DNA of 63,777 nucleotides, the filler included, from Psammoneis japonica (Eukaryota): assembly GCA_008632985.1 (NCBI GenBank). It is 8 parts of 8 records of this genome, joined end to end, with 100 filler letters (N's around TTAATTAATTAA, not from the genome) between each part and the next. Parts side by side here need not be neighbours in the genome. Positions count along the whole stretch, not along the records: positions 1 to 9,064 come from QPGO01000537.1; 7 more parts are not named here. One strand, 5' to 3'. A program made the position numbers and the translations under genes. Each line of letters starts with the position of its first letter. The stretch's first letter is position 1. Below, one piece after another: positions 1 through 34,815 of this stretch. The notes below the pieces were generated by a model that was given only the letters and a program-made list of their open reading frames with translations, made no database searches and had not been told where the DNA came from.

Positions 1-578
1 AACTCAATTTCAAGTCCGCAGCAGCTGCACGGCAACGGTCAAACAGTCCCTGCATCACGGCAGACTTGCGTGCTCCTCCTCCTCTACATCCTTCGCCACC
101 CCGCACAAACCAGGAGGCACTGCTTTGACATCATGCAATGCTTCATCGGCTCGGTGCCGCACACAACAAGAAGACCCCCTCTGGGACATTGGTCAATTCA
201 AATTTTTGACGGCAGACAGGGTCGGCAGGTTGTGTTCACATCATGTTGCAGAGTTTGCTCTAACTCTTCTTCAGTTGCTGGAAAAACTGCTGCTTGCGCT
301 CAACAGGCAGCCCTCCTTCGACAACAAGGGCGTGCAAATCCGGACCCGCGGCGAGCTTTCTGCTGTGATCTCACTCGGATCCTGGAACGATTCTTGGATG
401 AACCCAGCCGAGACGTCATTTTGTTCGGTGATTTCAACGCTGATTTCCGGCATGACTCTGATTCATCAGCCACCATGGCCCAACGCTTTAATGTGTCCGA
501 TGTCATGCACCACTGTCACGAAGACCTTGATTTTTCCACATGCGTTTGAGGCTCACGAAGACTGGACTACGTTCTTGC

Positions 579-1527
579 NNNNNNNNNNNNNNNNNNNNNN
601 NNNNNNNNNNNNNNNNNNNNNNNNNNNNNNNNNNNNNNNNNNNNNNNNNNNNNNNNNNNNNNNNNNNNNNNNNNNNNNNNNNNNNNNNNNNNNNNNNNNN
701 NNNNNNNNNNNNNNNNNNNNNNNNNNNNNNNNNNNNNNNNNNNNNNNNNNNNNNNNNNNNNNNNNNNNNNNNNNNNNNNNNNNNNNNNNNNNNNNNNNNN
801 NNNNNNNNNNNNNNNNNNNNNNNNNNNNNNNNNNNNNNNNNNNNNNNNNNNNNNNNNNNNNNNNNNNNNNNNNNNNNNNNNNNNNNNNNNNNNNNNNNNN
901 NNNNNNNNNNNNNNNNNNNNNNNNNNNNNNNNNNNNNNNNNNNNNNNNNNNNNNNNNNNNNNNNNNNNNNNNNNNNNNNNNNNNNNNNNNNNNNNNNNNN
1001 NNNNNNNNNNNNNNNNNNNNNNNNNNNNNNNNNNNNNNNNNNNNNNNNNNNNNNNNNNNNNNNNNNNNNNNNNNNNNNNNNNNNNNNNNNNNNNNNNNNN
1101 NNNNNNNNNNNNNNNNNNNNNNNNNNNNNNNNNNNNNNNNNNNNNNNNNNNNNNNNNNNNNNNNNNNNNNNNNNNNNNNNNNNNNNNNNNNNNNNNNNNN
1201 NNNNNNNNNNNNNNNNNNNNNNNNNNNNNNNNNNNNNNNNNNNNNNNNNNNNNNNNNNNNNNNNNNNNNNNNNNNNNNNNNNNNNNNNNNNNNNNNNNNN
1301 NNNNNNNNNNNNNNNNNNNNNNNNNNNNNNNNNNNNNNNNNNNNNNNNNNNNNNNNNNNNNNNNNNNNNNNNNNNNNNNNNNNNNNNNNNNNNNNNNNNN
1401 NNNNNNNNNNNNNNNNNNNNNNNNNNNNNNNNNNNNNNNNNNNNNNNNNNNNNNNNNNNNNNNNNNNNNNNNNNNNNNNNNNNNNNNNNNNNNNNNNNNN
1501 NNNNNNNNNNNNNNNNNNNNNNNNNNN
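579..1527. other. Assembly gap (N run) inside the retrotransposon ORF
   Basis: Continuous run of N. Confidence 1.
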
Positions 1528-1569
1528 GATGGAGAACATGAAACTGGGCAACTGAATGAGGCGACAGCT

Positions 1570-4500
1570 TTGCCAATTCAACACCTTCGTCGCCATGCTC
1601 CTCCCGCAGTTCAGAACTCTGTCTCAGCAGAATCTCTTCTCTCGAAATTAAAGTCATGGTCTGAATCGACTTCAACGTCTGTCAAGTCAGGGTTGCACTT
1701 AGGACACTGGAAGGCATCACACGCCCCCCACTCCTTTGCCAAGGACACTGACAAAGAGGGGAATCCATCCTCCCGGAAAGAATCTCTCGACCAGATCCAA
1801 CAGACTCTCTTCAAGATTCGCCTTCACTTGATCAACTACGCTCTGAAATGGGGTCATTCTTGTGACCGATGGAAGGACATCGTCAATGTCATGATCTTTA
1901 AAGAACCTGGGAACAACAAAACACACAGATTGCGTGTGACACACATCTACGAGGCAGACTTTCAAATTGTCACAAGCGTCAAATGGCGAGAGCTAGCTCA
2001 GCATGTGGAGAACCATCGCACGTGCAATCCGGGAATCTGTGGTTGTCGGTCTTTCCTGTCAGCTCAAACGCCAGTGTTCTTAGAAAATTTGATGTTGGAA
2101 ATAACCCGAGCGTCCCGCAAGATGTTGCTGACCAGCGACGATGACTGCACCTCCTGCTGCGATCGGAGCATTCCGTCCATTGTGGGATTGTGTTCACGAA
2201 GTGACGGCATGTCTTCATCCGTGGTGGAAGTGAATGTGTCAACTCTGCACCATGCTCGACACTGGCTTCGCACACTGCTGGGTCTTGCGCAGCGCAGTCA
2301 CTCACACTCTTCTCAGCACCCTCTTTACGGAACAGGACAAGGGAGCGGCAACTCTCCTTGGCACTGGAATGCCCTGTGCAGTCGTTTGTTTGACATTTTT
2401 GATGCCAATGCGATCGGGTCCTTTTTCGAGACTCCAGATGGGAAGTTCTTCATTAGAGCGTGCAACAGAGGCTACGTCGATGACACTTCCAAACAGGTCA
2501 ACGAGTTTAGGACTGGCCCCCAACCAACAGCATTCGAATTGTCCCGCGCCTTGAAACAAGATGACCAGCTATGGTGCGATCTGCTCGACGCGGCAGGACA
2601 TGAATCAGAACTTCCAAAGTGTTCCTTTCATGCCATTGAATGGGATTTCACGGAATGCGGTGAGCCCTTTCTCTCTCCATGTCACGACGACATTGATGTG
2701 GAAATTTTTTCTGCCGACAGGTCTGCTTCTCATTCGAGTGCGCAACTGTCTGCGCACACTCCACATGAGACCCTCGGGCACTACGTTGCCCCTGTTGGTG
2801 CCCAGAAGACCCAGCTCCAGAAGTTGCAACAGAAAAGCGACACTGCTGCCCTTTTTCTTTGCTCGTGCCCTTTTGATCGGACGGAAACCTGGCGGTGTTG
2901 TCATGCCTGTTGCCTTTCCTCGATGACGCACGTGTCACCGAGTTTCAATTTTCAGGACAAAGAGCTCCAGAAAGTTCAGCAGAAGGCGATGAGAGTGACA
3001 TTTGCCAAATGTGGGTGCAACCGCAACACCAAACGACTTGTTCCATGCGGCCCCCAAGTGCTCGGTGGAGGAGGTTTTAGATCCCTTGACGCAGAGCAGG
3101 GTGCAGCCCAATTGCAGCAATTGCTGAAACATTCCCGGGGAGTCAAGAATCTGCATCTCGGAGAGGATCAACCTCACAAACTGTTTCACATTGCAATCGC
3201 ATGGATGCAGCTGAACTTGGGCACAGGTGACAGCTTCTTGTGGGACGTCGACACTCCGTTGCCACACCTTGAATCGTGTTGGTTCGCTTCAGTTTGCTCG
3301 TTTCTGCATGGAATCAAGGGCAAAGTCCATCTGACACACAATGGCATTCTGCCCCTTCAACGTGACAACGACCAATTTGTCATGGATGTTGCACTTCGAT
3401 CACAACAGTTCAGTCACAGAGAAATCCGATGGATTGATTGTTGCTGATTGTTCCTTCGTGTGCTTGCAGTCTCTGACATGACCCTGGCGGATGGCATGCA
3501 TTTGGACAAAACCAAGGCAAATGGTGACCCCTCGATTCGGAGCAGTGTGAGCACGTTGAACAACATTGAACAACACAAGCCGAACACTCAGGCCTGGTCA
3601 GTGTGGAAGAAATTCTGCAAAACCCTGTGCCATGCCTCCACAATTCGTTTGAAGGAACCACTGGGAGACTGGCCAGTTCCTCCGTCGCAGATGCGCATGC
3701 AGGCGTCAGCTTGTTGTTCTTCCTCAGAAAATCACCCATGCGTCAAGGGCCCGTTGGGGTTTGAGATCTTCTTGGTCGACGGAACGAGAGCGGTGTCCAT
3801 CAGAGAGATCAAGGAGGCACCAGCGCCAACTGATGAATCACACCCAGCAGATGTCACTACGACAGAAGACGGAAGATGGCATTTCAGCATCCCAAGAACG
3901 ACGGTGGCCCCTGCAATCGCACCGAGCACTCCAGATTCTTTTCAAGATGTGCTGAAAACACTCCCTCAATGGGAATCTCAGCTGTTTGCGGAACCAGATT
4001 TCCATGTTTTCCCCCTTCTCTTGGTTCAACACTTCGACTCTTCTGCACTTGTTGCAGGAAGTGATGGATCTGTCAACAAAGGCGCCACCTTTGGGTGGTC
4101 GATCACACTCCAAGGGGTTCCCCTCGTAGATTGTGCAGGACCAGTTTTTGGGCATGAACCATCGTCGCACCATGCAGAGGCTTGCGGCATTCTTTCCATT
4201 CTTCGTTTTATCTGCCGATGTGTTGAATGTTGCCATTCCAGATTGAACAAGACATTGGACATTCATTGTGACAACAAGTCGCTTGTGTCCTGTCTCAAGA
4301 AGCTTGCTCTCACCCTTCCCGCTCCAAATCCAGAAGACTCTTCTCACAATTCACGTGATTTTTATTTACGACACCACGGAGCCAATGCGCTGTCCTCGGA
4401 TTGGGACGTCATTAACGAGATGTTGCACATGTTTCAACAATTGCAAGATCCGGAAAATGTGTCGATCAAGTGGGTGAAGGGGCATCAAGACAAGCGCGCT

Positions 4501-5613
4501 CCTGTTGGTTCACTCCCCCCAAACGCAAGAGTGAATGTCAGAGTGGATCGACTTGCTGGCGCCTGTCAAGGTCGCTGTGATTGGGACACATCACGTGTTC
4601 TCCCGTTTCCTCACTGCCATTCTCACTTGTCACTTGCAGACGGCACCTTGACCTCTGGTTGCAAGCAACAGCTTCGAAATGCAGCCACTGCTCCCCAGCT
4701 GTTGGAGCACACAGTCGAGCGCAATCAATGGCGACGAGAGGTTGTTGACCTCGTGAACTGGGACGCCCACGCAGTTTTGATCAAGCGTCATTCCAAGCAA
4801 CACGTTGGCATGGTGAAACTCGTGCACGATCTCCTTCCTGCCAACAAGATGGCACACCGGCACAATCCGGTTCGCCCTCATCACTGCCTCAAGTGTGAGC
4901 ATCCTGTGGAAGACAGGGATCACATCCTTCGATGTCCAGAAAACGAAGCATGGCGCCGGAAGTTTCTACAAGGCCTTCGGAAACATTGCGACTGCGTCGA
5001 TGCAATGCCAACTCCACAAGACTTTCTCATTGATTCTCTTCAAGCCTGGTTTGACGAAGAGATCATTTGCACGGACGATGTCGATTGCTGCTGTCGGGAG
5101 CTGTGGCGTGCGCAATCAGATGTCAGTTGGAGACAGATTTTCAGTGGCCGCTGTTCAACTTTGTGGAACCTGATTCAGTCGGGATGTTTGCGGGATTCGA
5201 GCATCCTTCGCCAATGTGAAGCTGAAGACAAGCACCCACCAGATTGGATGGCACAGATTGGGTCATTCATCTGGAGACAATGGTGGGAACCATGGGAGGA
5301 ACACAACACATTCGTGCACGGCCACGATGCGGATTCACGCAAGTCATCCCAACGGCGAATGGCAGAAGCAGAGCTGACCGCAATGTGTGACAAACGACAA
5401 GAGCACCTTGCGAAAGATCAAGCAGCCCTTCTTGATTCAGCAGAAGAACACAAGACGTTCACAACGGTTCGAATTCAGAATTGGATTGCTGTGGTTCGTC
5501 CCCGATTAAAAGAAAGTTTGAAGGAAGCCAGGAAACTGGCGCGTCGTGGCACACGCACCATTGCCAGTTATTTCCGTTGGGCGTCTCCTCCGGGAGGCGC
5601 CGCTTCAGGCTAA
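1570..5613 (+). pseudogene. Retrotransposon ORF2 (RT-RNase H) with one in-frame stop
   Basis: ORFs 1570-3447 and 3448-5613 are in the same frame. TGA at 3445-3447 aligns with Arg in copy 3 (WIDCC*LFL vs WINCCRLYL), consistent with CGA->TGA. Only 7 Tyr in about 1346 codons. Confidence 0.85.
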
Positions 5614-7236
5614 TCGCATCCACTTCTGCCGCACTTGCAAGTCAAGTGTGCTGGAGGTGTGGGTTGGCCGGTGCCGGTGTTGCTGGGCAAAGGTGCAACA
5701 GCACTTTAAATTGGGATTGGGTTTTTTTTGTTGTCGATGGCGTTTGCATGGAAACAGTGAAAAAGCAAAACACGTCCACTGCTGAATGTCGCCAAGGGTC
5801 CGGATTCAACAAGCAGCTTCATTCAGGAGAATGACGTCTGCACAACACCAGCAGATGAATGCTTGGATGGGTCCCCCATGGCCAGTGGGGTGCGCATGGC
5901 CAAATGACGACAAAGTGGAGCTCACTTTCCCATCTGTCCACTCTGCTGGAGCAGAGCAAGTGCACTCCAGTGCAAACCCCAGAAAAGATGCAGCAAGCAG
6001 AAAGATCAGTGATGGAAATGGGAACGAGTGGTGCTGAGAATTTGGAACTTCATGCCTGAAATTTGGCACTCATGTCACAACGGAATGAGAGCTGCTGTCC
6101 ATGGTGGAAACACTTGGGAAATTCGAGAATGCACTGTTTGGCCAACACACTGACATGTGAGTGGTTCACAAGACACAACAAACAGAGTCATGGGTGGGCA
6201 AATTGATGCAGCACACAATGAGGGCATGGTGAACATTGTCGCAGAAGCATTCAGCCAACTTGCTGTGAAGAAAATTGAGCCTTTTGAAGTCCTGCAACAA
6301 TGTCCTGCTTTTAAAACAGGGCAACGACATTTCCCCCAAATTGCCAGATGCAACACATCTTGCCAACACTTTTCATGGAGGTGAGCAAGATCAAAAAGTG
6401 CTCATGTCACAAGGACAAAATTGACTTGTCTGAAGATGCTTTGAAAAAATTGGCAACAGATTGGCGCACAATGCGTGCCCACTTCACACAGGAAAAAAAG
6501 ACAGTCTCGCAACACCCGCGCAGCTGCAGTGCAAAATGTGCAAGGCAAGACACAAACAAACAATGTCGCTCTCAAAAGACATTTGGAAATTGGAGCGGCC
6601 CTGTGTGGCCCACACAAAACAGCAACAGTCATTGCCGGCGGCACAGTGCAGTCAACGTGGAGACATCATTGATGCTGTCAATGTCCGTTGAACAACTCAA
6701 CTTGTCAAATGACTCCAATGTTTGATCTCACATTTTCCACTTTTTGCACTTTGTTCTGCTTTCCTTTGCGCTTGTTCTTTGAGCACAGTGCACCAGAGCA
6801 GATGGTTGAAAGGTTCCTTTTCACTGAGTGATGTTTTGACGTGTCCCAGAGAAACAGATTGATGTTGAGCACAGGATGCCTTGCAAAGTGCAATGTGTTT
6901 TTGCCAAAAATGAGCACAGCGCATTGTGCACACACACCACAGAAGGTGAGATGGTGCTGAGCTTGTTGGCGCCATTGGGCCTTGTCATTCAGCGCACAAC
7001 ATGCGCGATCACAGCCACAACTTGTGGCAGCAACTGCGGTCTTCCCAGGGCCAGCTGGCAACAAATTGACTGTCGCAGCTGAGTTTGCATCCAGTGCTGT
7101 GAAAGCTGTTGTTGGCAAGCAAGCTGAAGCTCAAGAAGGCCTTGAGGGAACGGAGCAAAGAGGCAGAACACACGGTCAATTTGGGCTTGCCTTGAGAGAA
7201 TGTCGCAGCTGGCAACAAAGTGCAACGTCTTGCATT

Positions 7237-15214: not shown

Positions 15215-15720
15215 TCTTTGTTGGACAGTGCTTTGCCACAGTGAATTATATAATATTACGGCATAGCAATTGCGTCACTTTCCACAATTCTCAGCTGTGA
15301 TGATTGATGTTGTCGGTGGGCGGAATGCTGATGATTTGATGATGGCGGATGATGGATGCAAAGCTGAAAATGCGCGAATGAATGAAAGGCAGGCAGGGGG
15401 GGAAACAGTTGCGTTGGGCGGGTGGACAGGCGCCAACAACCCCATGCTGTTTGTCCGTCATTGCGCACACACGTGAATCTCTCCGAATGAATGAGTTCAC
15501 TTCAAGTTCATCTTGGCACTCAGTGAGTGCTGTGCAACATGCCAGTTGAGTGCATGGCCCTTGCTTTGTGGTGTGGGCTCACCTGCAGACATGACTCGAA
15601 ATCTTGGGTGTCAGCGCACATCACAAGACATTTTCCAGCATCTGCCAGTTGTTGTCAGCGCCGCGCATGTCAGCACATGCTCCCTCAAGACACAAGGGCC
15701 ATGACAGACATGTCAAGCAG

Positions 15721-16105
15721 CAGAAGATGTCTTGCTGATGGCAGGGTGTGGCTGCAGTGTGTGACAGATTGTGTGAGTCAGCCAGCGTCCATCTTGTGGT
15801 GTGTGCAATGCGCCGTTGTCATGTGTGGCCAGCTCTTGCAGGGCCGGCTGCATGGCAGTCCGCCCAGCATTTGGTCTTCTCATGCTCTTGTTTGACAAGT
15901 GCCAAACCTGCCCTGTGGTGCACTGGTGTTCTGTGCATTTAGAGAGTGTTCTCTTGTTTGTCATCGAGCTGAGCAAGAAGGCTCTGTTTTCTGTCCTGGG
16001 CACATTGCCACTTGGAAGACTGCGCAGCACCTCAAATGACAGCTCTCTGCCAAACACTGACTGTGCTGGACTTGCATGCTGAGTGGCTGGCAGAAGTGTG
16101 TGCTG
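15721..16105. repeat. About 385-bp direct repeat, copy 1 (copy 2 at 17706-18087)
   Basis: tcttgctgatggcagggtgtggctgcagtgtgtgacagattgtgtgagtc... aligns over its full length with the second copy. Confidence 0.9.
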
Positions 16106-17294
16106 CTGCTCTCACTGCAAAATGCAGCCGCTGAAAGCATGCTGCTCCACTTTGTGCTGTCATCTCTTCATCCAGCTCCACACTCTCAACTGAAAACGGG
16201 CATGTTCTTGTCACAGGTGGGGCCTTGTGCTGCTGGGCTGTGATGTTGATTTTTTTTCATGCACCATTTGTCAGACACTTTCATTTCTGCTCTGCTTTGG
16301 TGGCATTTTGTGTCATTTTGTGGAGTGATTGTTGGGTGATCCACTCAGCAACTTTGTCATTTTTCACTGGCTCAGGCAGATTTTCTAAAACATTGAGTGC
16401 AAAGAGGTGCAAATGCCCTGCAAACTTGGTTGCTTGCTTGAGTGTTAAAGACAAATGTGTCTGTGTTGAGGATGGATTGACAAGCAAAGGTTGTTTTTTG
16501 TGCTGAGCTCACATTTTTTTTGTTTTCGAGAAAAAAGGGCACACCCCACACAAAGTGCGCAAGGTTTGCCAAAATGAAATTTTGACAATGAGCAGAACTT
16601 TGTCTGTTCACAAGACATTGTGCACACAAGATGGCAATGACTGTGTGCAATCTTTGGCTTGGTGCAAACATGTCTGTGGCCAGTCAAATGCCAGCCCTTG
16701 AAATTTCCTGGAAACTTGTGGAGGCTTGCCAGCCACAAGCAAGCAGTGCAATTTTGGCAAAAAAAATGGCAGTTTTTTGAATGTGACAATTGCGCACCAA
16801 GTCTGACAATTGGAGCTTGAATGTTTGAACCCCACTTGGAAAGGAGCCCCACCAGCAAGTCATGTTGGGGTAGCCAAAATGTCTGAAAAATGCAGCCGTG
16901 CATCTCAGTGGCAAAGCCAACCACAATTTTCACAAGTGCTGAGCACAAACCTCTTTTGTCCTTTTGCACTGCAACCACATCCAAGTGATTGCCTTAACTT
17001 TTTGGTGGGTGCCAGCAGAGTGCATCATCTTGCAGCTGGATGACCAGAGTGCTCCAGCTGAGTCTGGCCAAACAAAAAGCTGACTTGTTGGCATGGTCCT
17101 GAAGTCTTGAGAATCTTGTGAAGTCTCTCAAGACCATGCCCTGCTTCTTCTTAAGATTGTCTTTAAAGGATCCCTTTGTTGTGGCAAGCAAGTTGTTTGT
17201 GTCCATGCACATGAAAGAAAAAACTGCACTTGCTCTTGACACCTCACCAGCTTTGGGGTGCATTGATGATGGCCTTGCCATCAACACTGACAAG

Positions 17295-17703
17295 TTTCTG
17301 TGAACTGCTGCATCTTGGCCATGAAGTGCTCCTTGAAGTCAGCATGACAGTCAAGGTGATCCTGGGCGATGTTGGTGAAAGCACCTGCCGCGATTTGCAC
17401 ACCGTCAAGGCAGTTTTGCTGCAAACCATGACTGGAGGCTTCAAGCACCAGCACCATCATGCCATCATTCACCAGTTTGTCAAGCATCCCATGCAGGGCA
17501 ACCGGGGCTGGTGTGGTGCAGGCAATCGGCTGTGTGCCCTCTGGGTCTGTGACCCTGGCAGCGCCCAAGCTGGCCGTCGTGGGCTGTCCCGAAGCCTTTC
17601 CCAGATCTGCTGGCACATGAGTGCCACAACCAACATCTTTCTGTTGGCGCTGGTGATGGCAACAATAGTTTCAGGCTGGTGTCCAGCAAACTTGGCTGCC
17701 ATC
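17295..17703 (-). pseudogene. murE: Fragment of a bacterial-type Mur ligase MurE, frameshifted and hypermutated
   Basis: QPETIVAITSANRK (P-loop, normally VTGTNGKT), QIWE, TTPAPVALH, EASSHGLQQNCLDGV, AFTNIAQDHLDCH (normally FTNxxRDHLDYH), FKEHFMAK. Confidence 0.85.
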
Positions 17704-20700
17704 ANAGAAGTCTTGCTGATGGCAGGGTGTGGCTGCAGTGTGTGACAGATTGTGTGAGTCAGCGAGCGTCCATCTGTGTGTGGTGTGTGCAACGCGCCGT
17801 TGTCATGTGTGGCCAGCTCTTGCAGGGCCTGCTGCATGGCAGTCCGCCCAGCATTTGTCTTCTCATGCTCTTGTTTGACAAGTGCCAAAACTGCCCTGTG
17901 GTGCACTGGTGGTCGTGCATTTAGAGAATTGTCTTGTTTGTCAGCGAGCTGAGCAACAAGGCCCTGTTTCTGTCCTGGGCACATTTGCCACTTGAAGACT
18001 GCACACAGCACCTCAAATGAGGACAGTTCTCTGCTGAACACTGACTGCGCTGGACTTGCATGTTGGTGGCTGGCAGAAGCGTGTGCTGGGGTGGTTGGCC
18101 AGTTTAGAGTNNNNNNNNNNNNNNNNNNNNNNNNNNNNNNNNNNNNNNNNNNNNTTAATTAATTAANNNNNNNNNNNNNNNNNNNNNNNNNNNNNNNNNN
18201 NNNNNNNNNNCATCTCTGCATGGAAACCGTTCAGTCACTGGCCGGCCGACGCGGAATTTGTGCGGGAATGACCGAAGCGTCAGCTGAGGTCATCGGAACC
18301 GGTCACGAAGCCGGCAGGCTGAGTGCCGGTTCTCCCGTACAAATTCCACGGAGGCCGGAGCGGCCGAACCTGAGGGTGCGCTGAGGCGGAGGTCCCCGAT
18401 GCCGAAGCGCACCCGAAGGTGAGGACGCGTCCACGTGACTGACCGGCTTCCATGGGAACCTGTCAGTTAGAGGACTGACGCAACACAGAGACCAACAAAA
18501 TGCGTTGACATGGATCTCCATTGAGTGATCCTGGTGATGCATTCTTTGCACAGGACTGCTGGAAGACGCCATGGTCGACGGTGACGGCCTCTCGATCGCG
18601 GTGTCGTTTCGTGGGTTTGCTTTGCACATGTGCACATTGCACACACATGCAGGTGCACATTTGTTTTAATCAGGCGGTTCTGTTTGTGTGTTTGTTCATT
18701 TGCATGTGCTTTTTCACAGTCAGCATTGGTTTGTGGCATTCAAACACGATTGAACTCTGCGACGTCACATGCCAGAGACCTGCACAACATTGTCGTAGCC
18801 AGCATGTGCAGGAACCACCGTTGGGTCGAGAGCACTTTTTGAACTTCAATGCCAGACAACATGCAGATTTCTGCGAGTCAGAAATGACCCTCCAGTGCCA
18901 TGTCATGTGCATCGCTCACTGAGGGAACGCGACGGCCGGTTCCCGGAACACTGGCACATGCCTGCGTGGCTCTACGTCGGGAATCGGCCGAATTTGTCAA
19001 AATCGACTGCGCTGGTTCCGACGGTTGGAATGAGACAAAATTCAAATGTTGGTTCGCAACCGTGTGCCAAGTTCCCACGCAGCTTCTACACAACCGCCAA
19101 AATCATCGCGGTCACAATGACTCGAGTTTCCACACACAGTCCACACAGCACTGCGAACAACAATGTCAGTCCGACAACTGACAGGTTCCTTTCAATGACA
19201 GCCGGCACGCACAAAATGAACTGCATGTTCCTTGATCTCCATGTGATGCGGAAGCATGCAACAACAACCCATCTCGTTCACCCTCCGATCCAAGCCAGTG
19301 CACTGCAAGCGACACCCCCAAGGACCGCCCCCATCGAAACAGAGACAGTGCCTCCATGCAGCTGTGGTGCAGAATCAGCAGAAGTCACAGCGACACATCA
19401 CCTTTCTTTGGTTGTGACTGCGGCGCGACTTCCCTGAGTTTCGTTGGCGTTCTTCTGCTTTCAGCAAATTTTGTTTGATGGTGTTGCTGTGGCTGCTGCA
19501 AATGAAGCAGGCACATGTCATGTTCTGGCACAGAACAAAGAGCTTTCAGTGGGGATGCTCTGACCAATGTCCCTCTGCCAGAGAAGCAGACAGCTGTGTC
19601 GACTGAGTCGTCTCTTGACTCTTTTCCTCCATTTTGCCACACTCACCAGATTCAAAACAGTGGCAAACATTTCAGCCTTCCTGCAAGCAGGATTGTGGTC
19701 CTGACTTGTGACAGCTGCAGAGACATCAGAGCACTGTGTTGGCTGGTGTCAGAGATGCTCAGTGGGGTGCGCGTGTTGATGATGCTGTGGAGTGTTTTTT
19801 GAGCTGCTCATTCTCTGTGCAAATTCAGGGGCTCTTCACCGGCATCAAGAAGAGAACTCACCCCATCCTGACTGGAACTCATGGTGGGATCTCTGGGAGT
19901 CACACAACAAAATTGGCTCATGGACATGAGGCAGGTGCCACAAAGATGTTGTTGCAGAGAGAGCCAGTGGGGAGGCTGAGCTCACAACTGTTTGCAGAAA
20001 ATGACAAGAGAGTGCTTGGCTGGGGATTGTGGCATGCTGATGGATTCCATTGAAGAATGCTGCACCCAGCCACTCCACTGCCAGGCTTCAGAGCCAGGCA
20101 GCTGGGGCAAACCATGACTCAAAGACAGCTTGAAAGAAGAAGCAAACACTCAGGAGCACTTTGCACAAGAGCTTGTGCCGTCATTGGCTGCTTCTTCCAA
20201 CAGGCATCCCATTCTGGTGGTGGTGCCAATCCAGGCCAATCCATGGCACTTCTGCTGCACATTTGTGCACTGGAAGTGCAGGCCATCCTGCACTGGCACA
20301 GCCTGTCAATGGAATGGCAGCACTGAAAACCAGGTTTGGGGTTTTCTGCCAAGCATGTGTGCACCACCACCAATGCTTTTTGGTGGAAGGATCTCAAAAA
20401 TGATTCCTTGTGCACTCTGCAATTGCTTTGTCCAGATGCACCCCAAAAAAGTTGAAGACATCTGGAAAAGCATGGCACTCTGCCAACCAGATTTACAACA
20501 TGCAGAGACAGACCATTTTGCATGGAAGATGGCAAGACAAAATGGGGTGCGTGAAAATTTTCCCACCCAAGCCATGAGTGATTCAGTGTCTCCTGCTGCC
20601 AACCCCCGCCACATTCTGAGGAAGTCATGCAAACATGTCATGTGCTCTGTGCATGCAAAAGACAAGCTCCAGCCTCTGATGTTTGTTGAGCTCCAATGCG

Positions 20701-23700
20701 TCCCTTCCTTTCTGAGAAATTTCTGCACAAAATCAGCGCCACGATTTCCCACCTCATGAGAAAATGCCATGCTTTTGAAGAATGAATGACAGTGTTCAAT
20801 GATGCTCATTAAAAGGAAAATTCTTTTCCAGAGCTTTGCTCAATGGCAGACAGCTTCAGCAAAATGCTTTGCGGTTTTGCAGTGTCTGACTGTTGTTCAC
20901 CATTGAGTGTTGAATTGCACAGGAGAAGCATGGTGGAAATCTTCCGCGCATCCCATTTTTTTCAGATTTTCCATCTGTCATCTTCCATGCAAAATGGTTT
21001 GTGCCAGAAAGTTTGTTTGCACAAAAAATCACCACTGAAGAGGGGGGCAAGTTGAAAAAGCAAGTTCTTGTTGTGTTCTCTGCACACAGTTGCTGCTCCT
21101 CTTGGCGCATCTCCAAAATCTCTTTCTCTCATGTGTGGCAGCCAATGCTTTGCACTGCTCCTGGAAAAAGTTTTCTTTGTTTGTCATTCAAAATGCCTGT
21201 CATCTCTTTTTTGAAATTGCGCACAAATCCCACATGGCTGGTTTGCCAGAAAATGCCAGGAAACTGGTGCCAGGTGCCTCTTTGTTCCTCCGCAGTTGAC
21301 AGTCATCTGATCAGGTGCGCTTTAGATCAAACATTTGCAATGGCATGCATGGCAAAACAGCCAGGTTTGTCATTGCACATGTTGTGAGAAGACAACAGCT
21401 TTGGCCCAAAAACATGCAGACTCTTTTTTGCAGAAGGGTCATTTTTGAAAGAGATTGCGCAAGAATGTGCGAGCCTGACAGCTCCAACCACTGGAAGGCT
21501 GGTGCCTGCAAAGGCTGTCCTGACAAGACAGCATGTTCTTTGGGCACCTTTGGTTCTTTGTCAGAAGCCTCAGCACAAGCTTAAAAAGAAAAGCCTGTGC
21601 TTCAGTGCTTGTTTTCCAATGTTCAGCCATGTGGCTCTCTTGCCATCTAGAAAGGGTGGAGTCATGGCATTGCAAATGGAAATCCAAGCGACTGTTGCTT
21701 TCAGGAGATGCAGCAAATGGATTGGACAAGGAGGGCCAAAAGCATGGGGGGCTGGACAACAAAAGGAGTGCAGCAAGTTCCTGGCCTGAGTTCCATGACT
21801 GCAGCATAATCATCAAATGGCAAAAAAAATCAAATTTGGAAAATTTGGCAGGCAAAAAGTGGTCATTGTTGTGAAGTGGGTGTTTAAAAAACTTGACATT
21901 CAAAGAGAAGCAAAAAACAGCCAAACACAATGACGTGCTGGCTGGCACAATTGGCCTCAGGTGAGTGCAGAAAAACAAGTCTTGGGTGCACAACATGATG
22001 TTGCCATGTGTTGTTTGTGGGTAACTTTGAAAGAGACATGTCTCCCATTTTCAAAAACTCAAAGGTGATGTTGTCAGCGAAGCTTCAAGAGTGGCGGTGT
22101 TGGCGGTGTTCAAGGCCAAAAAGTGGAAAGCAGTGTTCAGAACAATCTGTGCTGCACTCACTGTTTGTGCATTCATGCACTTGTTTTTTTTCAGCAGTGT
22201 GATGCTTGCTGTCCATTTTGTTGGATGCTTTGTCATCTGGGTCAACAAGATCATCCGGGACAGCATTTGACATCAACAGATTTGCCCCCACTGCTCAACT
22301 CTGTGCAAATGGGAGCTCAACACGGCACCAACTCATGTTCTCTTTGGCAATGGCCCGCCATTTTTCAAGGTGTGTGTGTGAAAAGCTGCTTCCAATGCCA
22401 TCTGGTGTTGTTGTTCATGTGCTCTTGATGGTGCCAACATGACAGTGCTCACTCTCAATTGCTCAATGTGGTGCCGGCAGAATGACTTTGGGAAAGTCCA
22501 TGGGATCTTGTGCGTTCATGTGACAGCACCAGCAGAATGATGCCCACTCTCAACTGCCCATTGTGGTGCAGTCAAAAAGAGACTCACTCTAAATTTGCTT
22601 TGAATGCTCCATCACATGCGGCAGGTGTTGACATCACCCAGGGATGGCATTTGACGTCAATCGATGCACCCCAAGTGGTTGACACAGAGCAAATCCAAGA
22701 GTTGAAGAGCACCCTGTTCTTTTGCAATTGCCCAGTCATGTGAGTGCAGCAGAGTGCCATTTTGATGTCCTCTCATGATTGCGATCTGGCAAGTGTGATT
22801 TGTGTGTTGTGCGCTTGTTGTGCTTTTGGCAGAATGCCACTCAGCACTCTCATTGCCTCGACTGTTTCATCATCAAGGATGACAAGCAGCAGCCAAAGAG
22901 CTTGTCACACATGCATGAGCAGCTGAATGGCAACATTTGCCAGCAAACAGCACACAATGATGACAACGAAATTAACCAGCCAGAACGAATGGCCATTGGA
23001 TTGGAGACAGGATGCCATTTGAACGTCAGAACAAAATTGGCCTTGAACAAAAAAGAAAAGCAGAGGCTGCACGTGATGTGAATTGATTTGTTGCATGGTG
23101 AAAAGAGGAGTGAACAGAAAGCAATTCATCACACAGTAAAAAGCCACCAAGCAAGTGTCACACTTGAAAATGTCGGGAACATTGTCCGCGTGGACACTGT
23201 GCTTGAATTTTCTTGTGCACGACATGCCAAGAAAAATGTTTGCATCAGAACCAAGATTTCCAGCATGGCGTGCAAGAATGTTCAAATTAAAATCAAAAGT
23301 TTGTTGGCACGTCGGGCAAGAATGCCGTGCAGGCATTTGCATGCGATGTCAGATCATCGCCCCGCCAGACGTTCTTCCAACAAGCCACCTCCACACACAG
23401 CGTGGCAAAGCCTTGGATGAATGACAGAGTCATCAAGAACTGGAAGTGTCTGTCTTTCAGCAGTGCCTGGCCATTCATTCCAAGCCTTCTCCAGCAGATC
23501 TGCACTCTCTGACCAGAAGGGAGTGACTGGCTGGGCAAGACACAGCACCTCATTCTTCTTCCCTGGTCGGGAGGAGATTCAATTTGCACGGCCCCCCTGC
23601 CTGGACAAACAAAGTGGACCGTGGCACCGCAGAAGTGAGGAGTGCCGCGTTTGTTGCCGAGCACTGCAATGGAGCCATTGTTTGCACGTTGCGTTGGTGG

Positions 23701-26706: not shown

Positions 26707-29310
26707 GGTGGGATCACAAATGCCATGTCATCTGCACAGTTTTCTGCGACACCTGACCAGCGCCCGATGCACTTCCTTTCAAAGGGAAATTTTGCCTGAG
26801 GCATCATAAAGTGCACCGGCTGGTGCCAGTCAAAGAGGGCATGAGCTGAGACGTCTGGTGTTGAACCCGTGATGTCCTCTTTGGGGACTTTCCCATCCAT
26901 TTCCGGATGCTCAGAGGCTGCAAGCCTCCTGACAGCCATGGCCCACTTGGCAAAGCAGGACCAGCAGCGTTTTGGCGCATTCGTGCGCTTTGCTGCAATC
27001 TGCATTTTCTTCTTCAGCTCACGAATGGAGGCTTTGGCCAAGTTCTGCCATGGACTGCAAGGAACAGCAACCCCTTGTTTGATCCGGCACTCCTCACAAA
27101 TTTCCTTTGTGCTGCCATCAGTCAGCTCGGGAGCGCTGTCCGATGCAATTTCCATTGGAACGCCTGCGTCGTGCACAAACGACACAGTCGCATCGGGGTG
27201 CTCGCCCTTCGACTTCCATGGATGGAAGCAGTCATGTCCACAACCATTTGCAAATGTGGAGCCACCCACATCCCCATGAGAACAGATTTCACAGTCGAGA
27301 ACATGTGGTCTGTGCAGAACCTGTCCTTGATGCTCGGGAACTTGAGCCAGGGCGCCTTCTTTTGTGCCTTCCTTCCCAATGGTGCACAGACGTTCCACAC
27401 CCCAGCTTGAGTTCGGCTCCCATTGGAGGGGTGAGGCAAGTTTGAGCCCAGGCAAGTCTTCAAGATCATCTTCCGTTGGTTTGCTTGTTTCGAAAGCAGA
27501 GACAACCCCAATGATTCACAATGGGATCCAGACCTTGGAGTCCGGGAAGGCAATTGAATGAGTGCTGGAGCTGTCAAACTGCTTTGGCACATCATGCACC
27601 GTCAAGCCGTCAGCATGGAGCTGATTGTGACATGTCAGTGAGTGTTTCATCCTGTCCCCAATGTGCATGGCCTCATTCAAGATGAGGAGGTGTGGTTGAC
27701 CAGAACTCGGGTCAACCCAGACAGCAGCAACCGTCTGCATCGGGATTGTTGATTGGGTCGCATTTGCTGGAATGTGGATCTACAGTGACAGCATGAGAGG
27801 GGTCAGAGAAGGGAGCACAGCTGGACCCTGCAATGCATGTGTCGGCATGCGTGTCCAGCTTGTTGAAAAGGGAGTTGTTGCCTGCATCAGTGTCGACTGA
27901 AGCTGTGTGTCTTAAGGATTTAGCAAAAGGCACAGACACATTTCCATTGGTGCAGACAGAAGCAGCAGCATCACAAGAATTGATTTGAGATTCCATTTTA
28001 ACTTCTACAAGGTTGTTGTCCTTGCTCATTGGCGCGACCTTTCATTCCTTTTTCTTGGCTTCCGCAATGCTTGCAGCCGCAGGCTTGTGCGCTCTGCACC
28101 CAAACTGATTCCCAGCATCGGCGCCCCCTTTTTCCTTTGAGGTTTTTTCCTTTTCAATGTCCTTGGGATCAGCAACCATCACCTTGGAATGTTTCCTCAA
28201 AGGTTCTTCGGTTTCCTCCATTTTCAGAGCGGCAGCTCGGCGCTTCTTCTCATGCTTCTTCTTCTCCCGAAGCTCATTGACTTTGGCCTTCTCCTCTTGG
28301 TTGAGGTCATCCCATTCTTCCTTGGGACAATGACCTGCCGTGATCCTGGGCTTGTTTTTCACCTTGCCTTTTCCCTGGCCTTGGTTCCTGTTCCTGGCGT
28401 TGTCCCGTTCCAATGCCGATCTGGCGGTGATCCGTCGCCCGATTCTTTGAGTTCTCAACCAGTGTCTTCATGTGCTGTTGACACAACTCAAAGCTGGAGA
28501 GTTTTGCCTTGTCGCCGTCTGCGACGCTCTTTCCGGTCTCAACCTTGGGTCCGTGATTCCCTTCAGGAAATCTGAGACTTCTTGGTCTCTGCACCGGCTC
28601 ATGCTGGTTGAACGCATGACGACTGCGCCCAGCGCATTTTGTGGCAGTGATCTGAGCATGCGCGCGGTTCTTGCGTGGTTTGATCAAGGCCCACCCTGGC
28701 CCATCAATGATCAGCTTTTTCAAGAGATCACAAACCTGCTTGTTGTCAGTGTCACGCAAATTCCCTTGATGGATCGTGGCAGTGACAAGGTCCTTGTCGA
28801 CGTTCAAATGAGTGGCGCTGCGCACCTCATTGTTGACAACGCACAAAAGTGGAACGCCCGCAACTGCGTTGCGGCGGTGCTGGAGCTTGGTCCCAAACAG
28901 CTCGTCCCAATTGTAAAAATCGTGCATCTGACTCAGAGGTGTAGCGCTTGGGGAGTTGTCGTCCGATTTGTCCTTCTGGATGTTCAACAATTCACTCAGA
29001 CACTCTGTTCAGCAAGTGATTGCAGCATCGTTGAAAGATTGGGCCTGCCTTGGCTGTCCACATGTCGTTTGACAATCCAGAAAAGCTCAAATGCCTTGAA
29101 CTTCCTGATCAAGAGGTGTGGGAACTGCACAGCTGGGTTGTCAACAGCGTCCTTGACGAATCCCTTGACCATGTCTCCGACCTTGGACAGTGGGATTTGG
29201 TGGCAGGAATCAGCATCGGTGATCCCTTGCACCACAACATGGGCCCTGGTGGCATCGTCAAACCCAATCCGGGTGAGGGCTGCATCAAAAGCAACAGCGG
29301 CAGCCATTGT
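26707..29310 (-). mobile_element. Degenerate Ty1/Copia (CoDi-like) LTR retrotransposon: gag, protease, integrase
   Basis: gag start MAAAVAFDAALTRIGF, protease LDTHADTC, HSLTCHNQLHADG (normally L.NQ.R..G), integrase SDSAPEL, PCSPWQNLAKASIRELKK, TPDVSAHALFDWHQPV, IGRWSGVA. Many frameshifts. Confidence 0.85.
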
Positions 29311-29380
29311 GCAGTCGAAACAACCCCATCAGAGGCACGACATGCGTGTGTGCATGTTTTGTTTCGATTTTCTTGCGCCA

Positions 29381-29869
29381 ACGGCAAAAGTTGGCTCAAC
29401 CAATGACATTGAGACCGGCAAATCAACGGAGTGTCAATTTCCTCAACAATTCCCACTCAAACATCCCAGTGCACATCTGCATTGCACGCACAGCAAATCG
29501 TTTCCAATGATTGATTTCCGTTGCACATTGCTCAGGTCCAATGAGCGAGTTGTGTTCACATTCACAACTGTGCCACATTTGCAGTGAACAATTTCGATTG
29601 AAGTGAGGTCATGGTGTGTCGTTCCATTGTGCAGTTGGTGCGCGATCGCCAATGGCAAAAGTTGGCTCAACCAATGACATTGAGACCGGCAAATCAACGG
29701 AGTGTCAATTTCCTCAACAATTCCATGCTCAACACATCCCAGTGCACATCTGCATTGCACGCACATTAAATCGTTTCCAATGATTGATTTCCGTTGCACA
29801 TTGCTCAGGTCCAACGAGCGAGTTGTGTTCACATTCACAACTGTGTCACATTTGCAGTGAACAATTTCA
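29381..29869. repeat. Two about 220-bp direct repeats (29381-29596 and 29651-29869) upstream of the Copia gag, possibly LTR or leader
   Basis: ggcaaaagttggctcaaccaatgacattgagacc...gcagtgaacaatttc occurs twice. Confidence 0.85.
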
Positions 29870-32264
29870 GTTGCGCGAGCGTCCATGGACCATGGCGCTT
29901 GCCGCAAAAATCAAAAGAATGGCCGCCATGCCATTGCCCGTTCCAGGCTGCAGAACAAAAAGAGACGTCATTGGCTCTGACAAAGTGAGCAATTCACACC
30001 ACAGTCTCCAGGAATTTGACAAGATGCGATTGAAAATGTTGGCACAGCAATCAACAGGTTCTAGAAAATTGTGAGGTCATTCCATGCCGCCCTCTGTGTC
30101 AGCGACAGTGATGGTCTTTGCCAAACACCACACTCAGCAACAGCATGACTGCATTCACTCAGCAAGTTGTTTTGGCACAACATCGTCTCAGGGTGATGCC
30201 AACCAAGGACGCGCAAAACCAACAAGTTGACTGCAATGTAAAAAGTTGACTCCATCATGATGCTCCATTTAAGAGGGCGGTCCGGAGACAGCCTGCTGCA
30301 CTTTTTATGCAGAAACTGCACGAGAGCCAAGCACGTGCATTCCTGCACAGACGCAGCACAAAAACAGAAAGCATGGCATGCCCATCAGCGACTCACAACA
30401 ACACCACGTGATGACCATGCATCAAAATGGAGTCGTCCACATCTCTTTCTGCAGCTCCTCTTTCACTTGCCCAATTGCTCCAAAAGGGCCAGGGAAAGCT
30501 CATGTGCTTCTGTCATGATGGATCAATGTAAACCAAAGTTGTTCTTTTTGTTCTACAACGTCAGAGTGCAGTGCAACAGATTGTCAAGGCGCACCCGCAC
30601 TTTGGCTGTGCTGTCAGCCAAATCAACACCATTTGCCATTCACTCACTTGACAAATTGTAAAGCTGACGATTCTTGTTGGCTGAAACTCTTGAGCTGCTT
30701 TTGAGACTTGACACAATGACCCATTTGTCCCGTCCTTCACCCTCCACATTTCATCAGAGGCCGCAACACAGTGTTGCTCACTTTCCTTTGTAAATTTCGG
30801 AACATTGAATTGCACAAAAGTGTGCCATCATTGTTCAACTTCAACAAAAATTTTAAGAGTCAAGTTGAATTTCTCATTTCCTTTTCATGTGTGCAATTGT
30901 TGCCTTTTTGTTTTGATTTGAATTTGCCAAAGACTTTCAATGCACATTTTGTCATCAAAAAATGAGTTTTGTTTTTGATGAATTTGTTGCACATTCATGG
31001 AAACGTCAACTTTGGCAGCGCTTTTTCAATGGCTCCACCGCAGTCTTGCATGGCCCTGACAAAGAGAGAAGGGGCAGGAGGACTTGCCGAGCCTGCCAAT
31101 GTCAAGACTGCAAAGGACGTGGAGGCAGACATTTGTGTGAGCACCAGATGCATCCACAGTCAGGAAATCAACACTGCACTGCTGTCGTGCCATTCAGCTG
31201 GACCAGCAATCACCAGCAAGAGCGACCACAAACTTGCCTTCTGTTGGCACAAAAAGCAAACATGCCCTCATGACAGGTGCACCATTTCCATCTCTTGCTG
31301 CTGTTTTGACTTTCGACCGGCATCCCAAGGGTGACACCACGGCCCGACGGCATCACGCAGCCCCTTGGCGTTTCCACAGCCCCCCCCTTTCCCAAGGTCC
31401 ATTGATGGCATTGTTGCATTGCAGCCCCTGCTTGCAGCTGCGATTTGTCATGTGCTCTTCAGCAAAGTCGATTTTGTGTTCCCAACATCCATCGATGGTG
31501 TCACTGTGGCCCAGCTCCTTGCCAACCGTGTGAGAATCAAGCAATGCCAACAGCAGCAAAAACACAGAAGGAGCTTTCACCCATTTTTGGACTTTCTCAC
31601 CTCTGTTTTCTTGGACACACAATGTCAGAGTAAAATGTGGAATTGACCTGCTTTGGCGTTGTTTGCAAGAGAAGGTTTGATGGCAATGATCAAGCATCAG
31701 CTGCTTCTGCGCCATCATGGTGGTTTTTTGTGATGGTTTTCTGCGCTGCGTTGTCTCACTTGAATGTGGAAAACTGTTTTGCATTCATTGTCACTTTGTT
31801 TCTACAAAGTTTGTGTCTTTTTCATGTTCATTGGAGGCACACTAAAGAACCAGATTTTTTGCATCAAAACAAAGCATGACAACACACACTTGGACTTGCA
31901 GCACTGAACTCTTTCTCCCTTCTTTTCCCTTTTCCTCTCTTCTCCTCTCTCTCTCCTCCCCTCCTCTTTTGTGTTCTGTCAACGACACCAAAAAATTACC
32001 TTGTTTTCACCTGCACCCACCAGTTTTCCAGTCAGCAGCTCCCTGCCTGCATTTTGGCACATTTTCTGCATGTGCAATGCTCTGCCCATTTCACAGCAGC
32101 GCAACCCTCTCCCCAAAATGCATTTGACAAGAGGGTGTGCTGTTGTGATTCCTGACTTGAGGTTGGTCCATTAAGAAATCCTGCCGAGTGAAAGGTGAGT
32201 GTGTCCCACGGTGCAAAAATCTCAAGGAGGCTCTCCATTTCTCCAAAATGTCCGGAGAGACAAA

Positions 32265-33660
32265 ACAAAACCCAAACTCTAATTTTAAGTGCTGCCACGC
32301 TTCCACCCTGCAACTCCGGCAACAACCTGGCCCACACTCCCAGTGCACTGGGTGCGGCAGGAGTGTGTGACAATTGGCCAAGATCGGCATCACCCTCTGG
32401 TGATGCCGTGCCAAAGCAGCTTGCGATGGCACGCGTGCCTCCAACAGCCAGATGCCGGGCCTCTCGAATGCTCGACTTGAACATTGGTTTTGCCATGGCG
32501 AGCCAGTTTTGTAGTCTGTGGGTAGAGTGGGTGAGATGTTCATCTGCCGAAGCAAACAACTCTGCTCGATCCCGGGCCAAGCACTCATCTGCCCCAGAGC
32601 AGATCTCTTTGACCTCTGCCTCTGCACCCCGCCATTGCGAAGACTTTTCGCATCTCTGAATCGTGCCCGTGTGCTGCATCATTGTGGGAGTCCCACAATT
32701 CCCACCATTGTGACCACACACAACTGCCAACAGTTGCTGCCCAGTCCAATCTTTTGTCTTTGTCGGATGGAGAGCAATGCAAGCCGGAAGACTCCAAGTG
32801 CGATGTTTGTGCCTCATTCCACAGACAGGAGAAACGCCCACTGAAAATGTGGCGCCAACCAATGTCGTCTTGAGATTGAAACAGCTCTGTGACACTGTGA
32901 TGGACTTGGGCAGAATGGAGCAATTCCTCATTGAACCAACCCTCCAAGGCATGCAACAACAGGTCTCGTGTGGACGGGGAAGTGTGTGTGTCGTCACATT
33001 TCTTCCGCAATCCTTTGAAGAACTTGCGCCGCCACGATGCATTGTGGGTGCACGCAGAATGTGATCCCTGTCTTCGAAGGGATGTTGGCAGTGTGTGCAG
33101 CAGTTGGGGCATGCAGGATTGCATCTGTGGACAATCTTGTTCGTCGGCAGCAGATTCAACAATGCGCCAGTTGCGCTCTTCAATGTCTGAAGAGTGCAAC
33201 TGGCCAAGCAAAAAATGATGCACTTCAATCATGTGCGAGTTTGTGCATTCGCAAAATTGCCTCATTTTCTGTTGGCGATCATTGGCATTTTAATTGCCGC
33301 ACAATTTCACTGCGGAGCTCGCACGCAGAAGCCCACGGGCCCAATGTCACACGGACTCCCACCTGCATCTGGAATGCGTCGTGGCAAGAGGCATGATTGC
33401 ACCACAAACTTGGCAGTTTGTTTGATGTTGAAGATGAGCACATCCATCAATTAAATTCTCGTGCTGCAGAGCTCGCACGTGGAATTCTGCGGGCCCAATG
33501 TCACATGGAGTCCCACCCAGGGCTGGAGCCCATCTGGAACGAACTTTCCAATCAACAGATTTGCACACTGGGTCAGACCATCTGCACTTCTCCTGCACAT
33601 GTTGGACCAGAGCTGGGCTCGAAGCTTCACAATGGAGAGCTGATTTAAATTTCGAGTTCA
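32265..33660 (-). mobile_element. Ambal-like non-LTR retrotransposon, 3' fragment (copy 2), interrupted at about 33157-33530
   Basis: LLPTNK, HPFEDRDHILR, IGWRHIFSGR, WELWDSHN...HGHD, RLQNWL...GTRAIASCF and the 3' UTR all align with 4800-5730. SPALVQHV...VDW at 33535-33650 aligns with 4660-4765. Confidence 0.85.
33157..33530 (+). repeat. Hairpin-bearing short repeat element inserted into the retrotransposon. An inverted copy lies at 34556-34716
   Basis: Hairpin ccagttgcgctcttc-N7-gaagagtgcaactgg plus two copies of the gagctcgcacg core. Confidence 0.7.
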
Positions 33661-33814
33661 CTGAAGCCGAAAAATGTTCGGAGAGACAGAAGTGGAACAG
33701 CAGAACTGCGTGCTTCTCCACCGTGACATCCAGGCAATGGCAGAATTTGTTCACACGATCATTGCTGGAGACAACCCAAATGATCCCGCATCTGGTCAGC
33801 CTTGTTTCTGATTT

Positions 33815-34400: not shown

Positions 34401-34756
34401 CTGTCGTCTCAATGTCCCTTCTCACACTCCATGATTGCACACGCCTCGCCAGAGCCTTCCTTGACCATCCCTGACAAGAAGGCCAAGCCTGCATCTTGCT
34501 TGGAACCAGCACCTCCTTCATTGTCTGGTGATGTGCCGTTGTCTGGAGAGGAAGCGTTCCAGGTGCAGGTGGGGACCCATGTGACATTGGGCCCGCAGAA
34601 TTCTGCGTGCGAGCTCCGCAGCAAAATCACACGGCAACTGAAATGTGAAGTGAGTCGTTTTTCACTCAGCCAGTTGCACTCTTTTCAGACGAAGAACGCA
34701 ACTGGCGCGCTGTTGTTTCCACAAATTCGTCACACAAAACGTCTGGGGCTTCGCGT

Positions 34757-34815
34757 TTGGGGTTGGGGTCAGGGTCAGGGTTTGGGGCCAGGGCTGGGGG
34801 CGGGGTCAGGGTCAG
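34757..34815 (+). repeat. Degenerate telomere-like hexamer array at a contig end
   Basis: Units TTGGGG, TTGGGG, TCAGGG, TCAGGG, TTGGGG, CCAGGG, CTGGGG, GCGGGG, TCAGGG. Confidence 0.75.

Follow-up and report, generated by a model that had tools for sequence, protein, structure and literature searches.

Genomic Organization of the Window and of Copy 1

The window analyzed here, a stretch of 63,777 nucleotides from the diatom Psammoneis japonica, consists of small contigs placed end to end with N44-TTAATTAATTAA-N44 linkers between them, and the source assembly comprises 91 Mb in 597 contigs. It harbors host genes, retrotransposon copies and large blocks that are nearly devoid of the dinucleotide TpA (referred to as erased; transposon DNA that keeps its TpA is referred to as spared). 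The features are as follows.

1..5729, + strand: copy 1, non-LTR retrotransposon ORF2, 3′ UTR and terminal T tract, TpA-erased (contig C539)
2960..4170, + strand: studied interval of copy 1, 404 aa, 0 Tyr, 3 TpA
3445..3447, + strand: single internal stop of the post-gap frame, TGA; the sisters read CGA and CAA
5730..7760, no strand: erased flank of copy 1, 2 TpA (128 expected)
15400..18110, no strand: erased block with a sharp edge, 10 TpA (164 expected); last clustered TpA at 15264
18211..23300, no strand: erased block, 18 TpA (335 expected)
26707..34815, no strand: erased contig, 31 TpA (500 expected)
32377..33156, − strand: copy 2, TpA-erased 3′ fragment from yet another subfamily (2 TpA in 780 bp)
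34916..43000, no strand: contig C547, made up of nested transposon fragments and mostly spared (TpA o/e 0.33–0.61 per kb); Pol_BBD match at 35081–35686
38484..39450, + strand: Copia-type 3′ fragment adjoining copy 3, spared, 32 TpA (erased sisters 2–11)
39660..41153, − strand: copy 3, fragment of 1.5 kb from a different subfamily, 25/32 ancestral TpA kept and 23/64 CpG lost
45100..50787, no strand: erased block, 20 TpA (360 expected)

Ordinary host genes with normal TpA were located at 9348–11009, 11861–13324, 23421–25067, 43101–45110, 50888–51842, 52214–55711, and 60473–61537, and encode, in order, FtsH, a sulfotransferase, an ARM/MYND protein, an ankyrin protein, a pentameric ligand-gated channel, a myosin, and a tRNA methyltransferase. 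A scan of the window gave an observed/expected (o/e) TpA ratio of ∼0.4–0.8 in gene regions and of 0.0–0.2 in large blocks in which CA/TG was raised, the counts being 681 TpA in 18,200 bp of gene regions vs. 99 in 26,372 bp of erased blocks. The erasure was limited to foreign DNA, the genes being spared, a pattern of the type known from Bigelowiella natans (see below). A GC-rich low-complexity tandem repeat (78% GC) occupies 7765–9064 at the end of contig C539, and in one erased block (47300–48740, − strand) two frames without any Pfam hit resemble a decayed helical-repeat host protein.

The ORF2 of copy 1 is ordered as endonuclease, reverse transcriptase (RT), RNase H and a C-terminal Cys/His knuckle, and is interrupted by an N gap at 579–1527. 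N stretches of ∼950 bases occupy the same place in two sister copies (579–1527 of the window and L060 on C41) and may represent withheld sequence, not gaps of the assembly. The Pfam matches of copy 1 to Exo_endo_phos (1–546, E 1.6e-4) and RNase_H (E 0.003) were under the curated cut-off; its RT region is 34–40% identical to intact relatives, in which the Pfam matches were stronger than in copy 1 (of four, Exo_endo_phos in three, zf-RVT in three and RVT_1 in two). A single frame holding endonuclease, RT and RNase H, together with a homopolymer 3′ end and a different flank for each copy, identifies the element as a non-LTR retrotransposon, and its domain order is the same as that of diatom non-LTR retrotransposons with these three domains. 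The sole named relative found, a Fragilariopsis cylindrus protein, is 26% identical to the copy 3 region. The clade may be Ambal. In the C41 sister, the T tract is followed by a flank unlike that of copy 1, and as the T tracts lead into unrelated flanks the element copies are separate insertions. In six copies, which represent two subfamilies, the 3′ end carries a sense-strand T tract in place of poly(A) (window 5722–5729; L062–L065).

Downstream of the gap, positions 1528–5613 form a frame of 1361 codons with one internal stop, which bears out the ∼4 kb of frame with a single stop noted in a preliminary description of this DNA. Since the sisters read CGA and CAA, the TGA at 3445 is attributable to CpG decay and not to TpA loss. 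A second stop of copy 1 lies upstream of the gap, at 547–549. As TpA loss also deletes TAA and TAG stops, an open frame alone may be weak evidence of youth.

Comparison of Copy 1 With Copy 3

The preliminary description had set copy 1 against copy 3 as heavily and lightly mutated copies of one retrotransposon family. The contrast in tyrosine on which it relied was reproduced, as the reverse strand at 39910–41121 of copy 3 encodes 403 aa and a stop with 13 Tyr and the 404 aa of the copy 1 interval contain none; all the residue pairs that it listed were also found. Opposite the 13 Tyr, copy 1 has Cys (TGY) four times, His (CAY) three times and an unrelated residue six times (K, F, N, I, F, and L). 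The copy 1 interval contains 3 TpA (71 expected) and copy 3 contains 41 (83 expected), which correspond in copy 1 to 11 TG, 11 CA and 19 other dinucleotides, with none kept. For 13 other dinucleotides tested, 25–51% were kept, and the probability of keeping zero of 41 TpA at 35% retention is ∼2e-8. The two copies are, as also claimed earlier, diverged subfamilies, with 227 of 406 protein columns identical (56%) and 65% DNA identity over 602 bp. Copy 1 belongs to C539 and copy 3 to C547, and as the window strings separate contigs they are not neighbors; being on different contigs and only 56% identical in protein, they form a weak control pair.

TpA Loss in Copy 1 and Its Sisters

A genome search, in which 40 of 120 candidates were scored, identified two sisters of copy 1 among the scored candidates, on C41 and C12, with 93–94% identity. 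Over ∼3.5 kb, the trio showed 80 columns in which the copies were split between CA and TG, along with 127 CpG retained in all three and 5–10 transversions per pair. Within 2960..4170, the three copies had 31 CA/TG-discordant columns, eight with TA in some copies and two with TA in all. CpG decay was rejected as the source of these switches, as it predicts 0.2 columns vs. the 80 observed, and all 19 discordant codon-start sites ended in C or T, as an ancestral TAY codon demands, vs. 22 of 47 conserved CGN codons (P 5e-7). With a model correcting for unseen concordant sites, the loss per copy in the trio was 82–86% for TpA, 10–13% for CpG and 0.4–0.6% for other changes (for copy 1, CpG loss ∼13% and background change ∼0.6%). 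The pattern was repeated in a five-copy subfamily, with 18–57 CA/TG switches per pair, and in 12 erased Copia sisters, in which 38% of doubly mutated site pairs were discordant. No TpA-rich member of the copy 1 or the five-copy subfamily was present among the 30 loci retrieved.

These observations support the loss of TpA in copy 1 after insertion, copy by copy, as the 80 discordant columns arose separately in each member of the trio. The earlier proposal that TpA loss is fast relative to background mutation also held, the hazard per A at TpA exceeding that of A>G change at ApA and GpA ∼240–270-fold. It had been reasoned that close relatives sharing the Cys, His and Pro of copy 1 would speak for inheritance; copy 1 and its two closest relatives differed among themselves at six of the nine named sites and agreed at three. 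The copy-by-copy test that it suggested thus favors its idea within the copy 1 trio, but the part that treated copy 3 as an earlier stage did not stand.

The shared-state pattern, absent for copy 1, was present in two other LINE subfamilies whose copies are 97–99% identical. In these (6 and 7 copies; 96–100% identity), CA/TG states were common to the members and the differences were mostly at CpG, with mostly 0–11 CA/TG switches per pair; a few pairs that took in unrelated flank were excluded. Since their members share CA/TG states, the two subfamilies multiplied after erasure. The loci concerned are L016, L017, L021, L023, L024, and L030 for one and L008, L012–L014, L018, L019, and L022 for the other, and two post-erasure copies lie 6.2 kb apart on C433. 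Tentatively, such amplification may be ascribed to passage with another mobile unit or to DNA duplication.

Strand Symmetry, Sequence Context and Specificity

Both TpG and CpA were formed from TpA, with 48 TG and 48 CA in copy 1. Strand runs of outcomes were seen in none of 12 copies (lowest p 0.16), which ruled out processive single-strand editing, and the strand factor in a fitted model was 1.09. Change of A to G elsewhere was rare (ApA 5/1218, GpA 5/1530, CpA 11/1527), as were transversions (9/9012). A pyrimidine after the A (A-strand notation) raised the hazard ∼3–4-fold, an A at −2 raised it ∼2-fold and an A at +2 halved it, in a context fit on 305 sites that treats copies as independent and so overstates significance. 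Correspondingly, ATAT was retained at 0 of 83 sites and TTAA at 29 of 67, and the 99 TpA surviving in the erased blocks of the window include no ATAT, no ATAC/GTAT and 26 TTAA.

The outcomes comprised 207 synonymous and 223 non-synonymous changes, and there is no selection on them. The eight Tyr that survive in copy 1 look conserved, and selection keeping RT Tyr was considered and rejected, as sites at which both outcomes change the protein were kept less often (51/306 vs. 147/577); owing to this lower retention at always-non-synonymous sites, the surviving Tyr are explained by context. Protection by an adjacent CpG was likewise rejected, as YTACG was kept at 40 of 78 sites but YTACA also at 53 of 124. 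The ratio of TpA to CpG hazard was 0.2–0.8 in spared copies, then 2–3, and up to 13–18 in the copy 1 trio. TpA loss is therefore decoupled from CpG decay, and it nears saturation before CpG decay exceeds ∼13%.

Spared Copies and the Effect of Genomic Location

The copy 3 subfamily comprises seven close copies. Polarized on spared sisters, TpA was kept at 25/32 sites in copy 3, 25/28 in the C379 copy and 25/35 in the C196 copy, and, of TpA shared by two spared sisters, the erased copies kept 16/74 (C35), 11/71 (C382), 2/29 (C91), and 9/45 (C26). Each erased copy had 0–2 new TpA vs. 22–59 lost to TG or CA. CpG loss was 35–44% in the three spared copies (36% in copy 3) and 46–70% in the four erased ones; background change in copy 3 and its two spared sisters was 1.5–4.2%, partly reflecting subfamily divergence. 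On a tree from which mutable columns had been removed, spared and erased LINE copies were interleaved (one node with support 0.47). Copy 3 has itself lost 7 of 32 TpA (p 3e-6). The view of copy 3 as a lighter, earlier stage is contradicted by its CpG, of which it has lost 36% vs. ∼13% in copy 1, yet it keeps 25/32 TpA. As the TpA-rich copies show more CpG decay and more background change than copy 1, TpA loss is location-dependent and bimodal. Beyond copy 3, the window carries at 41151–42489 a 610-bp direct duplication, 93% identical, with 19 CpG, 7 TpA and 3 CA/TG differences and 17 shared TpA.

The fragment at 38484..39450, which by its motifs is presumably of the Copia class, gave a similar picture. 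Of its 15 top-ranked sisters, three were TpA-rich and 12 erased, in a set of 40 scored out of 120 candidates whose ranking is biased to spared copies; CpG retention was alike in the two classes (p 0.67). Its best match among the scored candidates lies on C196, which also carries a spared LINE. C196 (L213–L222, L073–L076, L063) is a 139-kb contig of Gypsy, Copia and LINE elements nested in one another, with frames of up to 1914 aa, and is a candidate centromere core or refuge. No host gene was recognized among its 46 frames of ≥250 aa read by eye, and among 11 frames scanned four had RT families and seven had no family. One-kb windows with TpA o/e under 0.2 numbered 3/139 on C196, 1/40 on C356 and 4/60 on C160 (4–64 kb), in contrast to 19/20 on C382 and 20/50 around the C35 island.

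In a Gypsy element on C12, 248 of the 307 TpA of its C196 sister are changed, with two changes in reverse, 1.1% other differences, and CpG losses of 18 and 25. Pairs inside C196 that are 95–97% identical keep most TpA; TpA differences equal or exceed CpG differences in most of these pairs, and the process is still weakly active inside clusters. A young Gypsy (L066:6438–9901, C91) inserted in an erased LINE keeps 121/135 TpA, more than its C196 sister, and age matters only at the very start. Size alone is not the rule, because erased blocks can also be large, e.g., 26 kb on C41. Spared and erased DNA occur together on C379 and C160. C356 is spared and bears the sole genome match to its ataxin-2-like gene, and this single match ruled out a haplotig or contaminant origin of the contig. 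Telomere repeats were absent near the spared copies at the five loci checked. In sum, LINE, Copia and Gypsy sisters of like age are erased elsewhere and mostly spared in large nested clusters. At a guess, the clusters, which were characterized by composition and ORF content, may be centromere cores or guide-RNA source loci; transposon-rich centromere cores reportedly have a precedent in oomycetes.

Possible Mechanism and Alternative Explanations

There is little room for doubt that the TpA phenomenon itself is real. Loss of TpA follows insertion and strikes individual sites on both strands of LINE, Copia and Gypsy elements alike, with preference for TAY and in dependence on the locus. We propose that a host process mutates the chromosomal DNA of inserted transposons at 5′-TpA-3′, from A:T to G:C on either strand; a single change (TA>TG or TA>CA) would destroy the target, so that each site would alter once. 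The adenine may be deaminated to hypoxanthine and read as G at replication, conceivably by a zinc-dependent deaminase that chromatin or small RNA guides to elements which are silenced or were recently active. The effect would be one of defense, given that the target occurs in all Tyr codons and in many of those for Leu, Ile and Val. For this whole account, a host TpA mutator acting through adenine deamination, we consider the chances evenly balanced.

The genome contains candidate deaminases, i.e., genes that by their motifs are presumably ADAT2-like and TadA-like, and two editase-domain genes (C40, C79), as well as endonuclease V; the other enzyme labels used here are presumptive in the same way. 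The ADAT2-like gene (C26) has HAE, PCxxC and the Asn position. The second editase-domain (A_deamin) gene (L091:533–2219, C79) is conserved across many diatoms, its named relatives being all diatoms, and therefore does not single out this genome; an Atlas search with it returned A_deamin clusters only. An unusual deaminase was not found with PF00383, PF02137, PF14437, PF12851, PF05063, PF00817, PF04493, or PF00145, a set that divergent families would escape. The deaminases found look like housekeeping types, a point against the deamination account, and the DNA preference reported for amphioxus ADAT2 is TCG and GAA and not TA (PMC10354150). Sequence cannot separate A>G from T>C on the opposite strand. 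Moreover, simple targeting of silenced repeats leaves the sparing of dense clusters with 95%-identical neighbors unexplained. Among related metagenome loci, 0 of 80 kept (162 confirmed) were erased, with TpA o/e of 0.38–0.78 against a cut-off of 0.3, in a scan that favors intact, collapsed families.

A less probable route to the same outcome, though one with some standing, is targeted damage followed by error-prone repair, in which a TpA base is removed, or a patch synthesized anew, within transposon chromatin, a Y-family polymerase then placing G opposite T or, where loss of the A left an abasic site, C. Pol eta makes A>G at WA, and Rev1 inserts C opposite abasic sites. Five Y-family polymerase loci and many C5 methyltransferase matches in the genome lend this route some plausibility; against it, ApA was not raised (5/1218 vs. 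5/1530 for GpA), unlike the WA motif of Pol eta, changes of TA to other dinucleotides and transversions were rare where abasic bypass is expected to give mixed products, and TpA loss did not track CpG decay (the ratio of the two hazards ranging from 0.2 to 18). C5 methyltransferase domains were also noted within erased DNA (o/e 0.03–0.11) at L099, L100, L101, L105, and L108 (C301, C297, C28), where they are probably transposon-borne or duplicated.

Somewhat more doubtful is a thymine target, a modified (e.g., oxidized) T in RTA that pairs with G and becomes C, the palindromic TpA possibly bearing a symmetric heritable mark like CpG. Its sequence outcome would be formally identical, and both the strict palindromic dinucleotide and the sharp domain edges would suit it; a Tet_JBP match was absent from the genome, a weak objection, the control also being below the cut-off.

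That copy 3 is merely younger, with TpA loss a uniform fast clock on all repeats, is very improbable. The young C91 Gypsy with 121/135 TpA and the low-level loss in spared clusters (7/32 in copy 3) are what such a clock would produce, but CpG loss is 35–44% in copy 3 and its spared sisters vs. 10–13% in the copy 1 trio, spared and erased Copia have like CpG (p 0.67), and the LINE classes are interleaved on the tree. For copy 3 the clock is largely refuted, unless CpG decay is several times faster in clusters.

The remaining explanations are scarcely credible. A pre-integration change, whether from editing of the RNA transcript or from reverse-transcriptase error, could draw on the two editase-domain genes and on the preference of ADAR-type enzymes for a 5′ U, as given by Mettrop et al. 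(bioRxiv 10.64898/2026.01.13.699255), but TG and CA are about equal and intermixed (48 and 48 in copy 1), and flanks and unrelated neighbors are erased too. Strand symmetry refutes this explanation unless RNA of both strands is edited. Inheritance of Cys, His and Pro from a TpA-poor master element, or their selection, is equally hard to sustain; it is true in form for the 6- and 7-copy subfamilies, and the copy 1 trio agrees at three of nine named sites, but this number fits the chance expectation of one-quarter, 80 columns of the trio are discordant and there is no synonymous bias; for the subfamily of copy 1 the idea is refuted. Faulty assembly or sequencing, or a foreign genome as the origin of the spared contigs, can be given next to no weight: the assembly is in 597 contigs, and the public run compared is possibly from the same source sample, yet its contigs, which showed 217 transitions and 17 transversions relative to the window, matched C12 or C41 at 34 of 35 differences checked, the other lying under N (40 of the 234 differences were shown, 35 within the alignment), and spared and erased DNA share C379 and C160.

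Comparison With Known Systems and Significance

Editing of retroelements by APOBEC or ADAR enzymes acts on one strand, before integration. The process described here is likewise a context-specific hypermutation of the deaminase type on retroelements, but it affects both strands at random and includes flanking DNA. Repeat-induced point mutation (RIP) of ascomycete fungi causes transitions in repeats at one dinucleotide, makes TpA from CpA, and hits close similar repeats hardest. Both RIP and the present process are post-insertion transition hypermutation of repeats, at one dinucleotide and on both strands, that ends element activity. The polarity here is opposite, with 0–2 new TpA vs. 22–59 lost per erased copy, and close similar repeats are spared (the 95–97% identical C196 pairs). 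RIP depends on a RID/DNMT4 methyltransferase and on the sexual cycle. RID has been linked to diatom DNMT4 (PMC9998398).

The closest counterpart is found in B. natans, where integrated giant-virus and virophage DNA undergoes TpA hypermutation. The preprint on it reports de novo TpA>TpG/CpA in mitotic lines, only some of which show the activity, proposes adenine deamination, finds RT and DDE domains enriched in TpA-poor coding sequences, and suggests extension to transposons (Mettrop et al.). The two systems share A:T>G:C change solely at TpA, on both strands, in foreign-DNA domains, at a rate 2–3 orders above background. They differ in that the present case concerns a diatom and dispersed retrotransposon copies, with 82–86% loss vs. 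a region at rho 0.45 there, and in that de novo activity was demonstrated in B. natans, the present data being assembled contigs. Copy-by-copy independence, the TAY preference, the decoupling from CpG and the spared clusters go beyond the account of B. natans, in whose main text the words "diatom," "CpG," "context," and "centromer" are absent (Mettrop et al.). A literature search that covered subscription papers thinly found no report of TpA hypermutation in diatoms. A process described in one preprint on one rhizarian alga is extended here to diatom retrotransposons, with an escape that depends on place, and the figures added are a rate of ∼250 times background, TAY preference, action on both strands and completion before CpG decay.

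In practical terms, neither TpA nor Tyr content can date these elements, and TAA/TAG loss accounts in part for the long open frames of erased DNA. As location is all that distinguishes sister copies, the spared clusters provide a built-in control in the search for the targeting signal. With considerable reserve, one may envisage a two-tier adenine-deaminase defense of diatoms, in which large nested clusters (centromere cores or guide-RNA sources) are shielded and retain long open frames, newly silenced copies elsewhere lose nearly all TpA, and which would be SAR-wide together with B. natans. If this were true, TpA hypermutation across SAR would be built on a natural genomic-DNA adenine editor, and a natural enzyme converting A:T to G:C on chromosomal DNA would be of interest to base editing.
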